Source: Squalus acanthias (lineage: Eukaryota). From it: 64,000 nucleotides of DNA. The notes beneath the pieces were generated by a model, which was given only the letters and a program-made list of their open reading frames with translations, did not search any database and was not told where the DNA came from. Of this stretch, positions 12,855 to 62,149 are shown piece by piece. Made by a program: the position numbers and the translations under genes. Within the stretch, counting starts at the first letter, position 1. Each line of letters opens with the position of its first letter. The stretch lies in the NCBI GenBank assembly GCA_030390025.1, contig CM059438.1:17980001-18044000 (forward strand), given 5' to 3'.

Positions 12855-13121
12855 TTGATCTCTGACGAATGGAGTATATTAGCATGTAATCATTTAAGTT
12901 CCCACGTTCTTCAACTCACAGTCATGGCAATGACAGGAAGGTGAAAATAATGTGTATAAAATATCAGGCAGTAGCGAATGCTGTGTATTGTTTGGTCATC
13001 ATAAACTTAACTGGACCAGCCACATAAATACTGTGGCAACAAGAGCAGGTCAGAGGCTGGGTATTCTGCGGCGAGTGTCTCACCTCCTGACTCCCCAAAG
13101 CCTTTCCACCATCTACAAGGC

Positions 13122-13325
13122 CGGTGTCGACTTGTCTGCTTTCTTGCATCTCTGTAGATATGTAGTCGTCTGCCATTGTACGCTACACATGCATTGTTCT
13201 CTATCTATATATGCTTTATCGATTTGTATTCCTTTACTTCACCTGACGAAGGAGCAGCGCTCCGAAAGCTTGTGATTTCAAATAAAACTGTTGGACTATA
13301 ACCTGGTGTTGTGCGACTTCTCACT
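13122..13325 (+). mobile_element. Penelope-like terminal repeat insertion, family A
   Basis: 204-bp insert absent from the paralogous LINE at about 29580; 11-bp TSD ATCTACAAGGC (13111-13121, 13326-13336); about 165 bp shared with 60051-60495. Confidence 0.85.
13239..13275 (+). ncRNA. Minimal type I hammerhead ribozyme motif
   Basis: TCAC-CTGACGA-A-GGAGC(AGC)GCTCC-GAAA-GC-TT-GTGA: intact core, 5-bp stem II, 4-bp stem I, palindromic AAGCTT at stem III. Confidence 0.8.
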
Positions 13326-15433
13326 ATCTACAAGGCACAAGTAAGGAGTGTGATGGAATACTCTCCACTTGCCTGGATGAGTGCAGCTCCAACAACAACA
13401 CAAGAAGCTCGACACCATCTCGGACAAAGTAGCCCGCTTGATTGGCACCCCATCCACCACCTTAAACATTCACTCCCTTCACCACCGGCGTACCGTGGCT
13501 GCAGTGTGTACCATCTACAAGATGCACTGCAGGAACTCGCCAAGGTTTCTTCGGCAGCACCTCCCTAACCCGCGACCTCTTCCACCTAGAAGGACAAGGG
13601 CAGCAGACGCATGGGAACACCATCACCTCCAAGTTCCCCTCCAAGTCACACACCATCCTGACTTAGAAGTATATCGCCGATCCTTCATCGTCGCTGGGTC
13701 AAAATCCTGGAACTCCCTCCCTAACATCACCGTGGAAGTACTTTCACCACACGGACTGCAGCCGTTCCAGAAGGCAGGCTCACCACCACCTTCTCAAGGG
13801 CAATTAGGGATGGGCAATAAATGCTGGCCTTGCCAGCGACGCCCACATCCCATAAAACGAATTAAAAAAATAATTAGAGTTTGTTGCCTGATCTTGGATG
13901 AAAGGTTTTACTGGCCTCTGAAATTTCAAGAGTAGTTGCAGATTAGGAGTTGTAACAAGTTCATCCAGAGCCAAGCTGTGCCATTGAGTGAAAGGATACA
14001 TGTTTCCCCTACCGCCATAGAGACTTAATCATGCAGTGAGTTTTCCTTATCTCCGCCAGCAAACTAGGAACGAATGTGTTTTTTAAATACCCTGTTGAAA
14101 CTATGCATGACCAAGCACACGTTTCGCGTCAGCAGACTGGGTGTAAGCGACCTGCCGACAGTCTGACATTGGGTTGTGATATCAAGAGTGGACTTATCAC
14201 CAGGTACCACCATGACCAGAACGACTGGAAAATCAGGCCCTTGTTTGGTAGGCTTTTGTGATGAGGCATTAGCAATGCCTGAGCTTCACTCTCAGAGCTC
14301 CGTCTAGCTATTACAGATTTTCCAGAGCTGATATAAAACACCTCATACTTGTCCTGAACCATTAATCAGTTTACTTATCCTAACTGCACTTTTTAAGCAC
14401 ACACTCAATCTCTCAGATGTGAAAATATTTCTGGGGAGCTAAAAATGCAATTTTTCGGAAATCCTAACGGGAGGGTACCCAGGTATATGACTGATTGCTA
14501 AACTTGCTGTACTTTTTGATTTCCTTAATGAGGGATAAACTTTAGATTTTTTTTTCAATCATCTTCTCTCCTGTGATACTTTTGAAGATGAGGTTGCAGA
14601 TTGTGGTGGTATATAGTTCTGTTGATGCCCAACAGCACCTCATGCATGCCCAGTTTTGGGGCTGATGGATCTGTGCTTAGTCTACCCCACTTAATACCGC
14701 AGTAGTGCCACATTATACTACTGTTCTAAAACCTCCAACTCATTGTGAACAACATCACAGGATTGTGTGTGTAATAACAGGACTACTTCCCCTTATTTTG
14801 GGGCATTATATTAAACTGTTAAATTTAAGGTCATTAGAGTCTGACCATTCTTTAGGTAAAATATGAGACATTATTTCCTGTTTAATAATGGTATAAACCC
14901 CAAAACATTTGTCCTTGCAAAATTACCAGCTTTATGCTATCCATTATTATAAATTTACAGTGTTGGAAAATATGTGTATCTTTTGAAAAGGTTAAGTAAA
15001 TGTCAAGATGTTTCACCCACTGAAACACTTCAAACAGCGAAATGCTTCTTGTGAAAGTCGAAAGAGCATAGTCTATGGTATTGTCTAGGAGATGGTTTGC
15101 TTGAGAAAAACAGTATAAGTGCTAATTTCACAACCAGACCGTCACAATGCTGAGTTCCTGGGCTATTCAGTGCACAAATCTGCCAGCTCAGTAGCAGTTT
15201 TATTTAGTAACTTAGATACCTGACCATTCTGCTTTAAGAGACTAACATTGTTTGTGCAGCCCATCAAGCTGGCTGTCCATAAATTTGTATTGGTGCATAT
15301 ATTGACTGTCCAGACATTAGTTCTTAGACAGTGAAAGTTGTTAAGGCAGAAAGTTGTGTCAATTATTAAATATGCAATTGTAATCCTATCTGATTCATAA
15401 AAATAGAAAAAGGAAAATGTGCTGAAATTCATG

Positions 15434-19379: not shown

Positions 19380-19618
19380 TGTGGCGGATCGCCACCTAAA
19401 ACGGGCATAATCCACTCTTCCGTCTGTGGACAAATTTCCAGCACCTTCCCTTTAAGGCACCTTACCGTTAAGGCAGGAGGGGGCGGGGCCTCAGGATTTA
19501 CCCAGAGAATTCTGGGGGCTTTTCGGTTCTGCCATTTTGTGCCATGCTGTGATTAAAAAGTCTCTTGTTTAACACAAATGGATTCAGCCTTAATTCGTGT
19601 TTCGCGGCAGCCTCAACA
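19380..19618 (+). repeat. 5' LTR (239 bp)
   Basis: Direct repeat of 23458-23675; contains GC box GGGGCGGGGC and ATTAAA at 19552-19557. Confidence 0.95.
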
Positions 19619-19619
19619 T

Positions 19620-19633
19620 TGGTGACCCCGACG
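19620..19633 (+). promoter_or_regulatory. Primer binding site complementary to the tRNA-Trp 3' end
   Basis: TGGTGACCCCGACG begins after a 1-nt spacer following the 5' LTR. Confidence 0.85.
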
Positions 19634-19658
19634 CTCAGAACGTATTCCGAGCACTGCA

Positions 19659-20330
19659 ATGGCGGACACGAACGCAGTTTCCGTGAAACTGCCGGAGTTT
19701 TGGGAAAACCAGCCCGAAGCCTGGTTTCTCCAAGCTGAATCTCGCTTCCGGCTGCAAAATATCACCGCAGATGGGACGAAGTACGACTATCTCGTCACAT
19801 CACTCGGTAGCGCCGCAGTTTCCAAGGTTTGGACAACGCTGCAGAACCCACCAGAGGAAGGCAAGTACGCACATCTCAAGACAGCGCTCCTTAAAAAATT
19901 TACGGCCTCGGCATATCAGCGAAACTGCCACCTCCTCACCGTCAGACCTCCTCTCCCACATGCTCTCCCTCACCGACGAGAGCCCACCCGGATCCCTCTT
20001 CCGCACGCTGTTCATCCGCCAGCTCCCTCTCCGCATCCGCCCAGCGATCGTGGCGTCGGGCCTCACGAACCTGGAAGCCCTGGCCGATGAGGCCGACAAG
20101 CTGCTGTCCGCTCACTCCAGCCGTGACGTCACTCCAGACCTGGCAGCCAATGCCTGGGCGCGCCCCTCACCGGCCAGCACGCGGCCACAAGGGCCTGTCA
20201 CCAGGCCCACGGGGCCTTCACGCCCCACTAACCCGGGCCACTGTTACTACCACGCACGGTTCGGCGCCAGGGCACAACGGTGCACACCTCCCTGCTCTTT
20301 CAAGTCCGCCCCCGTTCCAGCCCCCGCGAT
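19659..20330 (+). pseudogene. gag: gag, frameshifted near 19938
   Basis: N-terminal VKLPEFWENQPEAWF; continues in another frame with PSDLLSHML...CYYHARFGARAQRCTPPC (C-X2-H-X9-C-X3-C). Confidence 0.85.
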
Positions 20331-23300
20331 GGCCGTGGGCCACGCGGGCTCCCTGCTGTTCGTCACGGATGACAAAACCGGACGCCGGTTCCTGTGCGAC
20401 AATGGGGCTCAGCACAGCATCATCCCGGCCTCCTCCCTCGACATCCAAAAGGGCGAACGAGGACCGGCGCTGGCTGCTGCTAACGGCTAGGAAATCCAGA
20501 CGTATGGCACCCGGACAGTCACCCTCGACCTCGCTGGTCACCACTACCGATGGGAGTTCATCACTGCCAAGGTGCTCTCCCCCCCTCATCGGCGCAGATT
20601 TCCTGTGCGCCCGCGGCCTACTGATAGACATCCCTCGTCACCGCCTCGTGGACATGAACACCATGTCCCCCATCCTGGGCGCCATGGCCCCTCGTCAACC
20701 TGCCGACATGGCGTCACAGTGCCACGCCCGGGCCACGGATGACTACTCGGCATTCCTGGCCGAATTCCCGGCCCTTACCAATCTAAACCTTCTCTGCGGA
20801 GGCCGCCAAACACGGGGTGGAACACTTCATCCCCACCACAGGCCCCCCAGTGTACGCCCACGCCCGCAGGCTGGACCCGGCCAAACTGGAGATCGCGCGG
20901 ACCAAGTTTGCCACCATGGAACAGCTCGGCATCATCCGCCGCTCCAACAGTCCCTGGGCCTCCCCACTCCACATCGCCCCCAAACCAGGCGGAGGTTGGC
21001 GCCCCTGCGGGGATTACCGCCGCCTCAATGACGCCACCACCCCTGATCGGTACCCCGTGCCGCACATTCAGGACTTCTCGGCTAGACTGGCCGGCCGCTC
21101 AGTCTTTTCCAAGGTCGACCTGGTGCGCGGCTACCACCAAGTCCCCGTCCACCCCGCGGACGTCCCCAAGACGGCCGTAATCACCCCCTTTGGCCTGTTC
21201 GAGTTCCTGCGGATGCCCTTCGGCCTCAAAAACGCGGCCCAGGCATTCCAACGGCTCATGGACTCGGTCCTTCGGGACCTGAAGTTCCTGTTCGTCTACC
21301 TGGACGACATCCTGGTAGCCAGTTCCTCCAAGCAGGAACACCTTCGCATCCTGTTCGGGCGCCTCAGCGACCACGGGCTCATCCTCAGCCCAGCCAAATG
21401 CCAGTTCGACCTGGACAAGATCGACTTCCTCGGCCACCACATCACCCATGCTGGGGCCATTCCCCTGCCCACCAAGGTGCAGGCCGTCCAACAATTTCCC
21501 CGCCCCACCACCATCAAAGGCCTCCAGGAGTTCCTCGGGATGGTGAATTTCTATAACCGCTTCATCCCCAAAGCGGCGTCCCTCATGAGGCCCCTGTATG
21601 AAGCCCTCCGGGGCAGGAGCGGCAAGATGGCGGTCGAATGGACGGCAGACGCGTCCGCCGCCTTCGATTCCACCAAGACCGCGCTCGCCAACACCACCCT
21701 GCTCGCGCACCCACGGCCCAATGCCAGGGTAGCGCTCACCACGGACGCCTCCGACCACGAGGTCGGCGCCGTGTATGAGCAGTGGGTCGACGGCGCCTGG
21801 CAACCACTTGCCTTCTTCAGCCGCCAACTACGCCCCCCGGAGGTCAAGTACAGCACCTTCGACCGCGAGCTCCTCGCGCTGTTCCTGGCGGTCCGCCATT
21901 TCCGGTTTTTGCTTGAGGGCCACCCCTTCACTGCGTTTGTCGACCACAAGCCCCTGACATTCGCAATGGCAAAGACAACCGACCCCTGGTCCGCCAGGCA
22001 GCAGCGCCAGCTCGCGGCAGTGTCCGAGTTCACCACGGACATCCAACACGTCTCCGGCCGAGACAATGTGGTAGCCGACTGCCTCTCCCGCCCCGCCATC
22101 CATGCCGCACACCTAGCAGTTGACTACGCTCAACTCGCAGCAGACCAGATCACCGACCCTGATCTGCTCTCCGCACCCACCAACCTACCAGGGCTACACC
22201 TGGCCGACGTCGCCTGTGGCCCGACCGCAGTCACGGTCAAGTGCGACATATCCCTATGTCAACCTCGGCCCGTCGTCCCAGCGTCCTGGCGCCGCCGGGT
22301 ATTCGACATTCTCCACAACCTCTCCCACCCCGGCGCCCGCGCATCCATCAAATTGGTAGCCAACCGCTTCGTCTGGCGCGGCCTTCGCAAGGATGTGCGT
22401 ACTTGGGCCAACTCCTGCCTAGCCTGCCAACGGGCCAAGGTACAGCAACACACGAAAGCACCCCTCGAGGAGTTTACCGTCCCCTCGCGGAGATTCGACC
22501 ACATCCACGTGGACATCGTCGGGCCCCTGCCGCCGTCGCAAGGCCACACGCACTTGCTGACCATCGTTGACCGCACCACACGCTGGCCTGAGGCAATTCC
22601 ACTGACCTCTACCACCACCGCCGACATCGCCAGAGCCTTCGTCACACCTGGGTCGCACGGTTCGGCGTCCCCTCCAACATGACTTCGGACAGAGGTCCGC
22701 AATTTACCTCTGAACTCTGGACCGCCGTCGCACGCAATCTCGGGGTGACCATTCACCGCACCACAGCGTACCACCCCCAAGCCAATGGACTGTGTGAGCG
22801 GTTCCACAGATCCTTGAAGGCATCTCTTCGAGCCAGCCTCCAAGACGGCGCCTGGACCGACCGACTTCCGTGGGTCCTCCTCGGCCTGCGCACCGCGGTT
22901 AAAGAAGACCTCCACGCATCGGCAGCAGAGCTCGTGTATGGTCAGCCGCTGCGCGTACCCGGCGCGCTCCTGCCCACCGCCACGACACCCTGGTCAGCCG
23001 ACCAGCAACGCCACGACTTCGCCTCACCGGCGCTGCAGTTCGCCCCGGTGCCCATTGCCCGACACGGCGAATCCACCTCACACGTCCCACTAAGCCTGCA
23101 CCAGGCACGGTTTGTTTTCGTCAGGCACGATGCCCACCGCGGACCCCTTCAACCCCCGTACGACGGGCCCTACAAGGTGCTACAGGCTGGGGACAAATTT
23201 TTCACCCTGCAAGTGGGCGACAGGACCGAAAAAGTGTCGGTGGACCGACTCAAGCCAGCACACTCGGAGCCCGGTGAGCAGGTCCCTGTAACTCGTCCAC

Positions 23301-23437
23301 CTCCACGCGGCCGACCTGCCCTCAAGCCGGTTCACCCGGCTGCTCCACGCCCGGCCGTTCCATGTCCACCGGCGTCCTACAAGAGCCGCTCCGGCCGGCC
23401 CATCAGACCGCCGCACCGTCTCGTCCACACCTCCTAA
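20331..23437 (+). pseudogene. pol: pol (protease-RT-RNase H-integrase), disrupted
   Basis: Protease FLCDNGA and IGADFL; RT MPFGLKNA and YLDD (21297-21308); RNase H TDAS and DRELLA; integrase HHCC, SDRG and GPY; TAG at 20488 and frameshifts near 20580, 20780 and 22645. Confidence 0.92.
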
Positions 23438-23457
23438 GTGGATTCTGGGGGGAGCTG

Positions 23458-23675
23458 TGTGGCGGATCGCCACCTAAAACGGGCATAATCCACTCTTCCG
23501 TCTGTGGACAAATTTCCAGCACCTTCCCTTTAAGGCACCTTACCTTTAAGGCAGGAGGGGGCGGGGCCTCAGGTTTTACCCAGAGAATTCTGGGGGCTTT
23601 TCGGTTCTGCCATTTTGTCTCTTGTTTAACACAAATGGATTCAGCCTTAATTCGTGTTTCGCGGCAGCCTCAACA
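23458..23675 (+). repeat. 3' LTR (218 bp)
   Basis: Differs from the 5' LTR by 2 substitutions and a 21-bp deletion. Confidence 0.95.
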
Positions 23676-29096: not shown

Positions 29097-30102
29097 TCAA
29101 TCATCACAGCCCCACAACATCACTGCAGGAGTTCCTCAGGGCAGTGTCCTAGGCCCAACCATCTTCAGCTGTTTCATCAATGACCTTCCCTCCAACATAA
29201 GGTCAGAAATGGGGATGTTCCCTGATGACTGCACAGTGTTCAGTGCCATTCACAACTCCTCAGATAATGAAGCAGTCCATGCCCGCATACAACAAGACCT
29301 GGACGATGTTCAGGTTTGGGCTGATAAGTGGCAGGTAACATTCGCGCTACAGAAGTGCCAGGCAATGACTATCTCCAACAAGCGAGAGTCTAACCACCGC
29401 CCCTTGACATTCAATGGCATTACCATCGCCAAATCCACCACCATCAACATCCTGGGGGGTCACCATTGACCAGAAACTTAACTGGACCAGCCACATAAAT
29501 AGTGTGGCAACAAGAACAGGTCAGAGGTTAGGTATTCTGCGGCAAGTGTCTCACCTCCTGACTCCCCAAAGCCTTTCCACCATCTACAAGGCACAAGTCA
29601 GGAGTGTGATGGAATACTCTCCACTTGCCTGGATGAGTGCAGCTCCAACAAACTCAAGAAGCTCGACACCATCCAGGACAAAGCAGCCCGCTTGATTGGC
29701 ACCCCATCCACCATCTTATACATTCACTCCCTCCGGTGTACCGTGGCTGCAGTGTGTACCATCTACAAGATGCACTGCAGCAACTCGCCAAGGCTTCTTC
29801 GGCAGCACCTCCCAAACCCGCGACCTCTTCCACCTAGAAGGACAAGGGCAGCAGGCACATGGGAACACCATCACCTCAAGTTCCCCTCCAAGTCACACAC
29901 CATCCTGACTTAGAAGTATATTGCCGATCCTTCATCGTCGCTGGGTCAAAATCCTGGAACCTCCCTAACAGCACTGTGGGAGTGTCTTCACCACACGGAC
30001 TGCAGTGGTTCAAGAAGGCGGCTCACCACCACCTTCTCGAGGGCAATTAGGGGTGGGCAATAAATGCTGGCCTTACCAGTGACGCCCACATCCCATAAAT
30101 AA
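29097..30102 (+). mobile_element. 5'-truncated HER1-like (CR1 group) LINE
   Basis: GVPQGSVLGP and FPDD (FADD) RT motifs, frameshifted ORF2 end, HE1/HER1-type 3' tail. Confidence 0.85.
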
Positions 30103-48793: not shown

Positions 48794-50228
48794 CATAAGA
48801 ACATAAGAATTAGGAGCAGGAGTCGGCCATTTGGCCCTTCGAGCCTGCTCCGCCATTCAAAAGATCATGGCTGATCTTCTACCTCATCTCCACTTTCCTG
48901 CACTATCCCCATATCCCTTGATTCCCTTAATATTGAAAAATCTATCGATCTCTGTCTTGAATATACTCAACGACTGAGCCTCCACAGCCCTCTGGGGTAG
49001 AGAATTCCAAAGATTCACCACCTTCTGAGTGAAGAAATTTCTCCTCATCTCAGTCCTAAATGGCTGACCCCTTATTCTGAGACTGTGACCCCTAGTTCTA
49101 GACTACCCAGCCAGGGGAAACATCCTCCCTGCATCTACCCTGTCAAGCCCTGTAAGAATTTTGTATGTTTCAATGAGATCACCTCTCATTCTTCTAAACC
49201 CTAGAGAATATAGGCCAGGTCTACTCAATCTCTCCTCATAGGACAATCCCCCCATCCCAGGAACCAGTCTGGTGAACCTTCGTTGCACTCCCTCTACGGC
49301 AAGTATATCCTTCCTTAGGTAAGGAAACCAAAACTGTACACAATACTCCAGGTGTGGCCTCACCAGGGCCCTATATAATTGCAGTAAGACGTCTTTACTC
49401 TTATACTCAAATCCTCTTGTAATAAAGGCCAACATACCATTTGCTTTCCTAATTGCTTGCTGTACTTGCATGTTAACTTTCAGTGATTCGTGTGCAAGGA
49501 CACCCAGGTCCCTCTGAACACCAACATTTCCCAATCTCTCACCATTTCTATTTTTCCTTTCAAGGTGGATAACTTCACATTTCTCCACATTATATTCCAT
49601 TTGCCATGTTCTTGCCCACTCACTTAGCCTGTTTATATCCCCTTTAAGCCTCCTTGCATCCTCCTCACAACTTACATTCCCACCAACTTTGTATCATCAG
49701 CAAACTTGGATATATTACATTTGGTCCCCTCATCCAAATCATTGATGTAGATTGTGAATAGCTGAGGCCCAAGCACTGATCCTTGCAGTATCCCACTAGT
49801 TACAGCCTACCAACCCGAAAATGACCCGTTTATTCCTACTCTCTGTTTTTTATGCGTTAACCAATCCTCAATCCATGCTAGTATATTGCCCCCATTCCCA
49901 TGAGCCCTAATTTTGTTTAATAACCTCTTGTGTGGCACCTTATCGAATGCCTTCTGAAAATCCAAATACACCACATCCACTGGTTCCCCCTTATCTATTC
50001 TGCTAGTTACAACCTCAAAAACTGGATTTCCCTTTCATAAATCCGTGTTGACTCTGCCCAAACCTATTATTATTTTCTCAGTGCCCTGTTACCACGTCCT
50101 TAATAATAGGTTCTAGCATTTTCCCTACTACTGATGTCAGGCTAACTGGCCTGTAGTTCCCCATTTTCTCTCTCCCTCCTTTCTTAAATAGTGGGGTTAC
50201 ATTTGCTACCTTCCAATCCGCAGGAACC
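48794..50228 (-). mobile_element. 5'-truncated CR1 LINE
   Basis: LDFQKAFD, QGSVLGP and FADD motifs; ORF 49103-49600; CATAAGAA tail. Confidence 0.9.
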
Positions 50229-55865: not shown

Positions 55866-56106
55866 GTAGAGTTGGATAGAGCATACAAGTTTCTCTGCAG
55901 AACATGCTTAAAGAACTGGGAGTTGCAAAGCTGAGAGGCTGCGGCACCAGCACTGGTGGAGGGTGTAATCAGAGTGACGGGTTTACATAGGTAGTTTATA
56001 CACATCCAGTCAACTTTTTCCCGTTCTAAACATTTATAAATGTTTGCAATCCTTTGTTCTTCTGATATCATGTCTCCTTTGGGATCTTTCAGCAGGCCCA
56101 CCATTT

Positions 56107-57238
56107 TAAGAACATAAGAAAGAGGAGTCGGCCATTCGGCCCTTTGAGCCATTCAGTAAGATCATGGCTGACCTTCGACCTCAACTCCACCTTCCCGCAC
56201 TATCCCCATATCCCTTGATTCCCTTAGTATCTAAAAATTTATCGATCTCTGTCTTGTATATACTCAACGACTGAGCATCCACAGCCTTCTGGGGTAGAGA
56301 ATTCCAAAGATTCACCACCCTCAGTGAAGAAATTTCTCCTCATCTCAGTCCTAAATGGCCGACCCCTTATTCTGAGATTGTGACCCCTAGTTCTAGACTC
56401 CCTAGCCAGGGGAAACATCCTCCCGGCATCTACCCTGTCAAGCCCTGTAAGAATTTTATATGTTTCAATGAGATCACCTTTCACTCTTCTAAACTGTAGA
56501 GAATATAGGCCAGGTCTACTCAATCTCTCCTCATAGGACAATCCCCCCCATCCCAGGAACCAGTCTGGTGAACCTTCGTTACACTCACTCTGTGGCAAGT
56601 ATATCCTTCCTTAGGTAAGGAGACCAAAACTGTACACAATACTCCAGATGTGGTCTCACCAGGGCCCCATATAATTGCAGTAGGACGTCTTTACTGTTAT
56701 ACACCAATCCTTTTGTAATAAAGGCCAGCATACCATTTGCTTTCCTAATTGCTTGCTGTACCTGCATGTTAACTTTCAGTGATTTGTGTACAAGGACACC
56801 CAGGTCCCTCTGAATACCAACATTTCCCAATCTCTCGCCAGTTAAAAAAAAATATTCTGTTTTTCTATTTTTCCTACCAAAGTGGATAACTTCAGATTTC
56901 TCCACATTATACTCCATCTGCCATGTTCTTGCCCACTCACTTAAAATATCTATATCACTTTGCAGCCTCTTTGCATCCTCCTCACAACTCACTTTCTCAC
57001 CTAGCTTTGTATCGTCAGCAAACTTGGATGCATTGCACTCGGTCCCTTCATCTAAGTCATTAATATAGATTGTAAATAGCTGAGGCCCAAGCACTGATCC
57101 TTGCGGTACCCCACTAGTTACAGCCTGCCAACCCGAAAATGACCCGTTTATTCCTGCAGTCTGTTTTCCGTCCGTTAACCAATCCTCAATCCATGCTAAT
57201 ATATTACCCCCAATCCCATGAGCCCTAATTTTGTGTAA
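56107..57238 (-). mobile_element. 5'-truncated CR1 LINE
   Basis: ORF 56585-57289 GVPQGSVLGP...FADD...LVRPHLEYCVQFWSP. Confidence 0.9.
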
Positions 57239-58470: not shown

Positions 58471-60101
58471 GCACTCAGTTGGTTTGCTTGGTTTCTCTAC
58501 TACTTGATAACAAATTTGCATGAGACTGAATTACAATGAATACATTATGAACTAATTTGAAAAATAATTAGCTGGAAGGCATTTGCATTGAGCTGGAATA
58601 AAATAACAAAGAAATTGAATATCAGCCAGTTTCCACTGTATAAATGTAAGTAATGTGAATATTAGAAATGTGTTTATAAGCATCAGGTTGATGTGTTACA
58701 AGGAGGTGAGATAGGATGTGTGATGTAAAAGAAAGATTTGCATTTATATAGTGCCTTTCACGACCACCGGACGTCTCAAAGCGCTTTACAACCAATGAAG
58801 TACTTTTGGAGTGTAGTCAATGTTGTAATGTGTGTACATATATAGAAAAAATTATTATGCATACGCACACACAAGCAAGCGCGCGCACACACACAATGTC
58901 TGTGCATTTCCTATCTACAAAGCTTTGCTTCATGCTGTCACATTTTTGTTATGCTTTTATGTCGAACTTTTTCCCTGCAAACTCCTATATCCACATTTAT
59001 AATGGAAACTGCCAAGCCTGCAAGAAGACCAGGATAGGATGCGAACCTGTGAACGTCTGATAACAGAGTTAACGTCTATGGCAGGAGACCGCTTAATGGA
59101 AACTGCCGATGTAAACTTGTCATGCAGTAATCACACTCTCCACCTTCGTAACCTGTACTGCAGAGAAGCACCTATGCTCCAACCAACTCAAATTTCTCTT
59201 TCAAAATTGTCTTCAGTTTTACTACTAAATTATTAAAATATATAAAGATTAGAACAGAATGTATGACTTGATAAATGAGGACTGAATATATTTAATATTG
59301 AATATCTACCTCTACTTTATTACTAATCGTAAATCTGCGATACAAGTGCAGTTGTATGATCTCAGTAACTTATAAATACTTTTAGATTTTAACAACTTCT
59401 GATAAATGGTTTCCTCTCATTCAACATTCTTTTATGAATAATAATATAGCGAAATATGTGCATCCATATACAATTGATAAAACTTAAATCATTTACAGAG
59501 TCAACTTTTCAAAATCCACCTGATCTTCATTATTACCATTTGATTATAGCTATTTGTAAATGAAAACTAAAATTAAGGCTCCAAAATTGTTTCATGCAAC
59601 TCAATATTAATTAATTCTATTTAGTATAGAATATATTTAGATTCTCCCATAGTTTGGTACCTTGTATACCAAAAATACTGGGGAACCAAGGGGCGAATGA
59701 GAATGAGAAACTTAAAATAATTAATATCAGTCGAGAAAATGTCTTGAGAAACTAATGGGACTAAAAGCCGACAAATTCCCTGGACCTAATGGTCTACATC
59801 CTAGGGTTCTAAAAGAGCTGAATGCAGAGATAGTGGGTGTATTGGTTGTGATCTTCCAAAATTCCCTAGATTTTAGAACGGTCCCAGCGGATTGGAAGGT
59901 AGCAAATGTAACCCCACTATTCAACTTAGGTGGGAGAGAGAAAACAGGGAACTACAGGCCAGTTAGCCTGACATCAGTCGTTGGGGAAAATGCTGGAATC
60001 CATTATGAAGGAAGTGGTAACAGGGCACTTAGAAAATCATAATATGATTAAAGTGAGAAGTCGCACAACACCAGGTTATAGTCCAACAGTTTTATTTGAA
60101 A

Positions 60102-60139
60102 TCACAAGCTTTCGGAGCTGCTGCCCCTTCGTCAGGTGA
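60102..60139 (-). ncRNA. Minimal type I hammerhead ribozyme motif, left arm
   Basis: Minus strand TCAC-CTGACGA-A-GGGGC(AGCA)GCTCC-GAAA-GC-TT-GTGA. Confidence 0.8.
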
Positions 60140-60373
60140 AGTGAAGGAATACGAATCGGCAAAGCATATATAGACAGAGAACAATGCATGTGTAGCGTAC
60201 AATGTCAGACGACTACATTTTATCTTTCTGACTGCCTTTCATCACACCTCGGCAGAGAAACAGAGGTGTGATGAAAGGCAGTCAGAAAGATAAAATGTAG
60301 TCGTCTGACATTGTACGCTACACAGGCATTGTTCTCTGTCTATATGTGCTTTGCCGATTCGTATTCCTTCACT

Positions 60374-60411
60374 TCATCTGACGAAGGGGCAGCAGCTCCG
60401 AAAGCTTATGA
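60374..60411 (+). ncRNA. Minimal type I hammerhead ribozyme motif, right arm
   Basis: TCAT-CTGACGA-A-GGGGC(AGCA)GCTCC-GAAA-GC-TT-ATGA. Confidence 0.8.
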
Positions 60412-62149
60412 TTTCAAATAAAACTATTGGACTATAACCTGGTGTTGTGCGACTTCTCACTTTTGTCCACCCCAGTCCAACACCGGCATCTCCACATCAT
60501 AATATGATTAGGCAGAGTCAGCATGGTTTTATGAAAGGGAAATCATGTTTAACAAATGTATTAGAGTTTTTTGAGGATGTAACTAGCAGGGTAGATAAAG
60601 CGGAACCAGTGGATGTAGTATATTTGGATTTCCAAAAGGCATTCGATAAAGTGCTACATAAAAGGTTGTTGCACAAGATAAGGGCACATGGGGTTGGGGG
60701 TAATCTATCAGCATGGATAGAGGATTAGTTAATGGACAGAAAGCAGAGAGTTGGGATAAACGTATCATTTTCAGATTGGTAGGCTGTAACTAGTGGGGTG
60801 CCGCAAAGATCAGTGCTTGGGCCTCAGCTATTTACAATCTATATTAATGACTTAGATGAAGGGACCGAGGGCAATGTATTCAAGTTTGCTGATGATACAA
60901 AGCTAGGTGGGAAAGTAAGTTGTGAGGAGGACGAAAAGAGCCTGCAAAGGGATATAGACAGTTTAAGTGAGTGGGCAATAAGGTAGCAGCTGGAGTATAA
61001 TGTGGGGAAATGTGAGGTTATTCACTTTGGTAGGAAGAATAGAAAAACAGAATATTTTTTAAATGGTGAGAAATTATTAAATGTTGGTGTTCAGAGAGAT
61101 TTAGGTGTCCTAGTACAAGAAACACAGAGAGTTAGCATGCAGATACAGCAAGCAATTAAGAAGGCAAATGGCATGTTGGCCTTTATTGCTAGAGGGTTGG
61201 AGTACAACAGTAAGGAAGTCTTGCTACAATTGTACAGGGCTCTGGTGAGACCACACCTGGAGTACTGTGCACAGTTTTGGTCTCCTTATCTAAAGAAGGA
61301 TATACTTGCCTTGAAGATGGTGAAATTATGGTTCACTAAATTGATTCCTGGGATGAGAGGGTTGGATTGAGTAGATTGGGCCTATACTCTCTGGCGCTTG
61401 GAAGAATGAGAGATGATCTCATTGAAACATATAAGATTCTGAGGGGGATTGACAGGGTAGATGCTGAGAGGTTGTTTCCCCTGGCTGGAGTGTCTAGAGC
61501 TAGGGGGCATAGTCTCAGGATAAGGAGTTGGCCTTTTAAGACTGAGATGAGGAGGAATTTCTTCACTCAGAGGGTTGTGAATCTTTGAAATTCTCTGCCC
61601 CAAAGATCTGTGGATGCTGAGTCGTTGAGTATATTCAAGGCTGAGATAGATACATTTTTGGACTCTAGAGGAACCAAGGGATATGGGGATCGGGCTGGAA
61701 AGTGGAGTTAAGGTCGAAGATCAGCCGTGATCTTATTGAATGGCGGAGCAGGCTCGAGGGGCCATATGGCCTACTCCTGCTTCTAATTCTTATGTTCTTA
61801 CAATTCAAAGGTTTATGAAGCTAGGTTCTACTCTAATCCAGGTCGATTCATCTTCAAGCCGAAATATAAGGTCGTCAACAAATCTGAAATGAAGATTTGA
61901 ACACGTACAATATAGTAATACTCATCTGCGTGCAGTGGAAACACCTCTTCACTTGCTAGACTATCATTGAGCAGATGCTTACGTATCCCCTTCCTATCAA
62001 AGTTTCAGATGTTTTTCTCCGCTTCCCATCTCCCTAACTTCTCCATTACATGCCAACACAGTACATAAGCATAGCAAAAACAGTTTCAAAAAAAGCGCAC
62101 AACACCAAAATTTATAGTTCAGCAGGATGCCTAATCGATTGACTTTAAA

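Follow-up and report, generated by a model that had tools for sequence, protein, structure and literature searches.

A 445-bp insert that splits the reverse-transcriptase (RT) region of a long interspersed nuclear element (LINE) in Squalus acanthias (assembly GCA_030390025.1, contig CM059438.1, forward-strand positions 17,980,001 to 18,044,000; the whole of this 64-kb stretch is termed here the window, and positions are counted from its first letter) carries a minimal type I hammerhead ribozyme motif on each strand. Its non-coding signature makes it very likely that the insert is a truncated Penelope-like element (PLE). The object itself is ordinary, and its structure is known in kind: both opposite-strand hammerhead pairs on truncated PLE ends and the combination of an inverted pseudo-long terminal repeat (pLTR) with a one-sided tail are already published. 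Its mechanistic interest, which is modest, concerns how two such ends came to lie head to head. It is proposed here, with moderate confidence in the mechanism as a whole, that both nicks at the target site primed reverse transcription on two variants of the pLTR and that the resulting truncated cDNAs were joined head to head.

The insert is enclosed by a perfect 15-bp direct repeat (60036-60050 and 60496-60510, 100% identity). Inside it, two inverted arms (60050-60250 and 60263-60463) align without gaps, differ at 5 positions and lie 12 nt apart; when base 60050 is given to the duplication, the length is accounted for as 200+12+200+33 = 445. From left to right, all on the plus strand unless stated otherwise, there follow the left target-site duplication (60036-60050; 15 bp, or 14 if base 60050 is assigned to the arm); the left arm (60051-60250, minus strand), recognized by self-comparison of the window as what would be an inverted, tail-less, 5'-truncated pLTR copy; a 12-nt spacer forming the head-to-head junction (60251-60262); the right arm (60263-60462), a putative direct, 5'-truncated pLTR copy; a 33-nt tail at this end only (60463-60495), which is 70% A+C, occurs once in the window and may extend a few bases into the duplication; and the right target-site duplication (60496-60510). 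The next seven bases (60511-60517) repeat the start of the spacer, such that 60496-60517 is exactly 60036-60050 joined to 60251-60257: in effect, a 22-bp duplication whose left copy is interrupted by the left arm. The arms are the sole long near-perfect inverted pair among the 14 pairs (at least 25 nt long and at most 1500 nt apart) in the window. Nor is there an open reading frame (ORF) in the insert: over six frames the longest ORF starting with Met is 37 aa and the longest stop-free run 48 aa. On all these points--the 445-bp insert with its 15-bp duplication, the indel-free 200-bp arms with 5 mismatches, the 12-nt spacer, the 33-nt tail on the right end and the lack of an ORF--an earlier reading of the DNA from its letters (termed here the sequence-only reading) was reproduced exactly.

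The target is a LINE RT region whose 5' part (59666-60050, plus strand) was delimited by alignment to a paralog and to an RT protein and whose 3' part (60496-61800, plus strand) matches RVT_1 (E 1.1e-07). The RT reading resumes across the insert, in that the left flank stops at residue 104 of a named RT protein and the right flank begins at residue 101; moreover, a paralog within the window (48796-50228, minus strand) runs across the site and bears the duplicated bases once, at about 50059-50073. This paralog and a further copy at 56103-57238 (minus strand) are 80-88% identical to the interrupted region. Among the best 120 of 581 homologues of the host RT, named sequences of cartilaginous fishes are 68-78% identical, against 49-66% for named sequences of turtles, birds and a caecilian, which by itself makes the window most likely chondrichthyan. 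The sequence-only reading had the insert splitting a CR1 RT region: the split is borne out by the register of the flanks and by the empty paralog, whereas CR1, the type to which this LINE presumably belongs, was a name carried by none of those best 120 of 581 homologues. The site includes a perfect 7+1+7 dyad (60035-60049), of which the window has 5 in all, and on each strand an ATT lies within 1-2 nt of the inferred nicks.

A third copy of the family, 166 bp long, lies at 13160-13325 (plus strand) and has its own hammerhead motif (13239-13275). It is a single tail-less arm, with neither mirror arm nor tail, that is 95% identical to the left arm and shares its tail-less boundary within 2 nt, while starting 32 nt further in. 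Its duplication is 11 bp long (13111-13121, plus strand, and 13326-13336) and lies within another repeat, for which there is an empty paralog at about 29565-29605. Between the first copy of the duplication and the arm is a 38-nt filler (13122-13159, plus strand), which has no second copy in the window. Its fit to an inverted stretch of the element did not exceed that of shuffles (743/2000 and 254/2000); the 7 nt with which it ends are, when reverse-complemented, the 7 nt with which the 11-bp duplication begins. Across the family, the 5' ends fall at 60263, at 60251-60263 and at the equivalent of 60295, and the duplications at the two loci are 15 and 11 bp. Because the third copy is single-armed, with another 5' end and a duplication of 11 bp, the family does not move solely as a fold-back. 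Likewise, because the two loci share a constant 3' end but differ in their 5' end and duplication, the pattern is, to judge from the behavior of LINEs and PLEs, that of target-primed reverse transcription rather than of a terminal-repeat DNA element.

The two hammerheads lie at 60102-60139 in the left arm (minus strand; predicted cut after 60106, C3 at 60135) and at 60374-60411 in the right arm (plus strand; predicted cut after 60407, C3 at 60378), with cores about 240 nt apart on opposite strands, each having a 4-bp stem I and a 5-bp stem II. A minimal-hammerhead descriptor, written with the motif in view, matched three times in the window (the two arms and the third copy, at 13243), against one match among 100 order-3 Markov controls, each 64 kb long. 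All three copies have the traits of PLE hammerheads, namely a CUGANGA / GAAA / UH core, an extra nucleotide after A9, G10.1-C11.1, a palindromic 15.2-16.2 and a 4-bp stem I, and 27 of their 27 stem cells are paired. In stem I, positions 60377 and 60408 pair as U-A in the right arm, where the left arm and third copy have C-G; in stem II (60388 / 60125 vs 13253) both arms have a G-U pair and a loop one base longer where the third copy has A-U. Every ribozyme-stem change among the three copies thus preserves pairing. The sequence-only reading had placed a hammerhead in each arm, with a cut after 60407, and there descriptor and stems agree with it; the check that it proposed, with hammerhead covariance models in Infernal, gave nothing, as a scan of the window had no match to any Rfam family at the gathering threshold, and no hammerhead family matched at E up to 10 either, where three scans returned 14, 1 and 3 matches, all to miRNA-type hairpins or weak unrelated models. 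The folding energy of the isolated motif was not above shuffles (z -0.92 and -0.78), and that of the right arm with its tail alone gave z -0.87. The hammerhead call stands on core bases and stems, not on Rfam or folding scores.

Two smaller features accompany the ribozymes. Just ahead of the ribozyme, at 60342-60373, in the mirror position 60140-60171 and at 13207-13238, lies a weak motif in which an initiator-like TCACT follows a TATA-like stretch at a distance of about 20 nt; it is intact in the left arm, its TATA-like part is altered at 60346 in the right arm and its initiator is altered in the third copy. Spacing of that kind between TATA and initiator has been reported for a rotifer pLTR (PMC3846280). 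The AATAAA that the sequence-only reading noted behind each ribozyme is present (60417 and 60091), but it is one motif counted twice, and occurs in the window once per 1438 nt per strand. Its function as a poly(A) signal is unsupported: the motif is common in the window and cleavage behind it would remove the RT start sites.

These features are those of PLE insertions, in which an inverted, 5'-truncated copy often occupies the 5' end and one of the ends often bears a tail of 30-40 bp (PMC8557442; PMC3846280; PMC8969392; PMC2377424); similarly, pairs of minimal hammerheads 100-700 bp apart on opposite strands in Schistosoma mansoni were credited to truncated PLEs in 2014 (PMC4209133). With endonuclease-bearing (EN+) PLEs of the Penelope/Poseidon clade, as represented by the lizard PAc (PMC11167929), Adineta vaga Pen2a (PMC3846280) and D. 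virilis Penelope (PMC2377424), the insert shares an inverted pLTR, a 30-40-nt tail at one end, a hammerhead that precedes the end of the tail by about 85-90 nt, an AT-rich target, a short variable duplication and 5' truncation. In the lizard element RT starts at two internal sites, the tail being the stretch between them, and the main start is 82-89 nt after the cut, counted by eye from the printed sequence (PMC11167929); here tail ends lie 88-93 nt after the predicted cut (88 for the right arm) and tail-less ends 54-56 nt after it. The likeness extends to the ribozyme, since PLE minimal hammerheads (PMC4209133) also have no stem III, a palindromic 15.2-16.2, an extra nucleotide after A9, G10.1-C11.1 and a 4-bp stem I. 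That the insert is a heavily truncated Penelope insertion with an inverted, tail-less pLTR, the first of two alternatives in the sequence-only reading, is backed by every feature tested: arms, tail, hammerheads, spacing and duplications.

There are also differences. Unlike EN+ PLEs, the insert keeps no ORF between its arms, and a clade would be assignable only given RT sequence; the cleavage triplet is CUU here and GUC there; and at A9 of the ribozyme, where PAc has its start codon as printed (PMC11167929), there is no ATG. Stem II is 7-8 bp in the S. mansoni families described in PMC4209133 and 5 bp here, in a cartilaginous-fish-like host. By eye, a short frame at 60258-60293 (plus strand), with its stop (60291-60293) 90 nt ahead of the ribozyme's A9, looks like the final part of the ORF of the lizard PLE and could be the C-terminus of the parent. 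No GIY-YIG match was obtained among the 30 of 102 window ORFs that were scanned. A same-strand repeat of the arm, that is, direct or partially tandem pLTRs, is absent at both family loci in the self-comparison of the window; as direct pLTRs are expected in longer copies only, this lack bars the status of an active copy, not that of a truncated one. A 21-nt arm motif sought in bacterial and archaeal genomes gave a single match, a chance 24 nt (L001 4001-4024) in an 851-aa bacterial ORF without further similarity.

The case for two templates comes from the differences between the arms. At all five of these the third copy agrees with the left arm, so that every change is on the right arm, an outcome with a two-sided chance of 1/16 if both arms had decayed alike. 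Two of the five, 60377 and 60408, form the compensatory stem I pair described above, for which the simulated chance is 0.002 given 5 random substitutions. The arms both retain 7 CpG sites, and none of the 5 differences falls on them; taken with the perfect duplication, this indicates a young insertion. One-sidedness, the compensatory pair and the avoidance of CpG together suggest that the differences are older than the insertion, and the arms were probably copied from two different templates.

A second line of evidence concerns the spacer. Because its first 7 bases are those that follow the right duplication, the junction is suggested to have been made in place, and the spacer appears, from this match, to hold target-site DNA. 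A match of 7 nt between spacer and flank, anchored as observed, was met by 97 of 100000 random 12-mers, and the third copy's filler likewise conforms to this anchored rule (73/100000). As an inverted copy of arm sequence the spacer was not above chance (5695/20000).

Several considerations weigh against this account. The rule for the spacer/flank match was set after the data had been seen, and without anchoring a 7-nt match is unremarkable (3777/100000); the spacer may instead be native pLTR sequence, and when the right arm is folded by itself the spacer pairs with about 60331-60343, although that resemblance does not itself exceed chance. The starting points of the two arms are no more than 12 nt apart, a closeness that is unexpected under independent truncation and expected if one arm was copied from the other. 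Covariation over just three copies is not significant, the observed pair count being reached in 162 of 500 column shuffles; the CpG argument draws on an assumed decay rate (P 0.02-0.20); and the pattern expected of two templates would also arise if one arm had later been converted by another copy of the family. The target of the third copy has neither dyad nor ATT, and hence the nicking motif fits one site of two. Finally, no parental PLE ORF was found, in that three peptide searches from arm and tail frames, with eukaryotic genomes outside their reach, yielded no true relative: a frame of 40 aa spanning ribozyme and tail, its stop written as X, had no candidate; a 30-aa tail frame, searched against cluster representatives, had one match, to a repetitive horsehair-worm protein, which was rejected as 15 summed weak stretches; and for a 48-aa frame across the arm 0 of 14 candidates held up.

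The proposed mechanism takes two-strand nicking and extension and the two RT start sites from published work on the lizard PLE protein, which nicks and extends both strands in vitro, prefers ATT on both and is predicted to dimerize (PMC11167929). The parental event would be a young, 5'-truncated insertion of an endonuclease-bearing PLE, with Penelope/Poseidon-type geometry, of which two pLTR ends survive. Within an old LINE, at an AT-rich site with dyad symmetry, the PLE protein would have introduced a nick on each strand, and each 3'-OH would then have primed its own reverse transcription: the right arm from the downstream internal start site (giving the tail) and the left arm from the upstream site (giving none). 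The templates would have differed slightly, being either two RNAs or the two pLTRs of one tandem transcript. Both cDNAs would have ended after about 200-245 nt, followed by head-to-head joining in place with a few target-derived bases. The hammerheads would be passengers from the parent. A transcript of the locus would contain a single sense ribozyme that lacks a dimer partner and lies hidden within a duplex of 200 bp; cleavage would accordingly not be expected, nor would re-mobilization of the copy.

The closest competitor, which is nonetheless unlikely, starts from the same truncated PLE but has the second arm self-primed from the first, with later divergence by mutation or gene conversion. 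Such a snap-back gives a direct account of the equal arm lengths--the best of all readings in this respect--and of the short loop, and self-priming has been proposed for inverted PLE junctions (PMC3846280). It predicts, however, arms that are identical at birth, whereas here all 5 of the 5 differences lie on one arm, two of them make up a compensatory pair and none is at CpG; and by itself it leaves unexplained both the tail-less boundary of the left end, equal to that of the third copy, and the target-like bases of the spacer.

Less likely again is that two PLEs inserted successively: the right arm first, with a 22-bp duplication, and then the left arm, in opposite orientation and without a duplication, into the left duplication copy. 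The exact identity of 60496-60517 to the two separated pieces noted above speaks for this, the unlike arms are accounted for, and PLEs tend to insert into or beside earlier copies (PMC6765202). Yet it needs a second event that left no duplication and had nearly the same length, and one locus cannot separate it from the concerted model proposed here.

The second alternative in the sequence-only reading, a self-contained, non-autonomous (retrozyme- or MITE-like, i.e., resembling a miniature inverted-repeat transposable element) fold-back, was that the unit is mobilized in trans. In a fuller form of this alternative, a PLE protein would move the unit whole, diverged arms and a fixed spacer would be inherited together, and the ribozymes would be silenced by their antisense copies until a protein or a second RNA unfolds them. 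In the rotifer, pLTRs alone are enough for mobilization in trans (PMC3846280), non-autonomous PLE derivatives exist (PMC8557442; bioRxiv 10.64898/2026.07.22.740005), and unlike arms of equal length could descend jointly from a master copy. The third copy is, however, single-armed with other ends, the spacer looks target-derived, and the insertion ends at the tail and hence lacks the RNA out to +172, about 55-60 nt beyond the RT start, that the lizard protein requires in vitro (PMC11167929). This alternative is accordingly not upheld and is considered improbable. Non-LTR (animal) retrozymes (PMC7229834; bioRxiv 10.64898/2026.07.22.740005), which are reported from the sole chondrichthyan genome sampled by the study in question, do resemble the insert in being non-coding, a few hundred bp long and pLTR-related and in having a type I hammerhead. 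They differ in that they are defined by head-to-tail tandem units with at least two same-strand ribozymes, from which a circular RNA is released, whereas the insert is head-to-head with one ribozyme per strand, and a fold-back transcript would be a 200-bp duplex. Two or more consecutive head-to-tail units with same-strand hammerheads, by which retrozymes are recognized, do not occur in the insert. If true, a mobile fold-back of this sort would be the head-to-head counterpart of the tandem animal retrozymes.

MITEs and foldback DNA transposons end on both sides in inverted repeats and make duplications of a fixed length, and that the insert is one of these, holding a hammerhead by chance, is very improbable: it does have long inverted repeats, a target duplication and no ORF, but the repeats are not terminal (the 33-nt tail lies outside them on one side), the duplications are 15 and 11 bp, and the third copy has one arm. 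In all, the 64-kb window holds one fold-back and one single arm. Long near-perfect palindromes can also be artefacts of sequencing or assembly; this is equally improbable here, for an artefact would mirror the flank and yield identical arms, while the host RT is in register across the duplication and the ribozyme stem is kept.

As to the state of the ribozymes at this locus, the full insert is predicted to fold as one hairpin (-373.4 kcal/mol, z -52), the ribozyme:antisense duplex being computed at -72.9 against -8.6 for the ribozyme fold. When a plus-strand transcript is folded as it grows, the left arm pairs with the core at 6 of the 6 lengths that contain it, and by symmetry the same burial would be expected on the minus strand. 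The need for a dimer comes from published work: minimal hammerheads did not cleave as monomers and did so weakly as dimers (PMC4209133; PMC6765202), and only 1 of 9 frog dimers cleaved (bioRxiv 10.64898/2026.07.22.740005); the lizard PLE hammerhead cleaves only with its protein and is dispensable for insertion (PMC11167929). The ribozyme here is thus predicted to be inactive, as it has no stem III partner and the antisense arm pairs first. The sequence-only reading had suggested that the antisense copy, being made first, could switch the ribozyme off. Antisense does outcompete ribozyme in predicted folding, but because each transcript holds one sense copy, without a stem III partner, a minimal hammerhead is expected to be inactive regardless, and no switch need be invoked: the shut-off is most likely a by-product of geometry. 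The insert was probably dead on arrival. If the locus is transcribed, the likelier outcome would be double-stranded RNA available for silencing or editing.

Elsewhere in the window there is a GC-rich LTR retrotransposon at 19380-23675, whose direct repeats (19380-19618 and 23458-23675), 90% identical, flank a stop-free frame of 631 aa in which RT, RNase H and integrase domains are recognized.

A known parallel to the proposed mechanism is LINE-1 twin priming, in which both target nicks prime reverse transcription and an inversion arises inside one duplication. There, however, the second primer starts internally on that same RNA and the pieces are non-overlapping, whereas in the insert both pieces start at the 3' start sites of the element and copy the same region. 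The origin of PLE inverted repeats is named as unresolved in PMC8557442, and a survey of mostly open literature, with Repbase and Dfam outside it, found neither a PLE derivative described as a mobile fold-back nor an account in which inverted pLTRs stem from two templates. Drawn from one locus, the two-template argument is a lead and not a result. Were the arms of young fold-backs found to be regularly unlike, compensatory ribozyme changes included, this would point to two templates and would favor priming from both nicks over self-priming.

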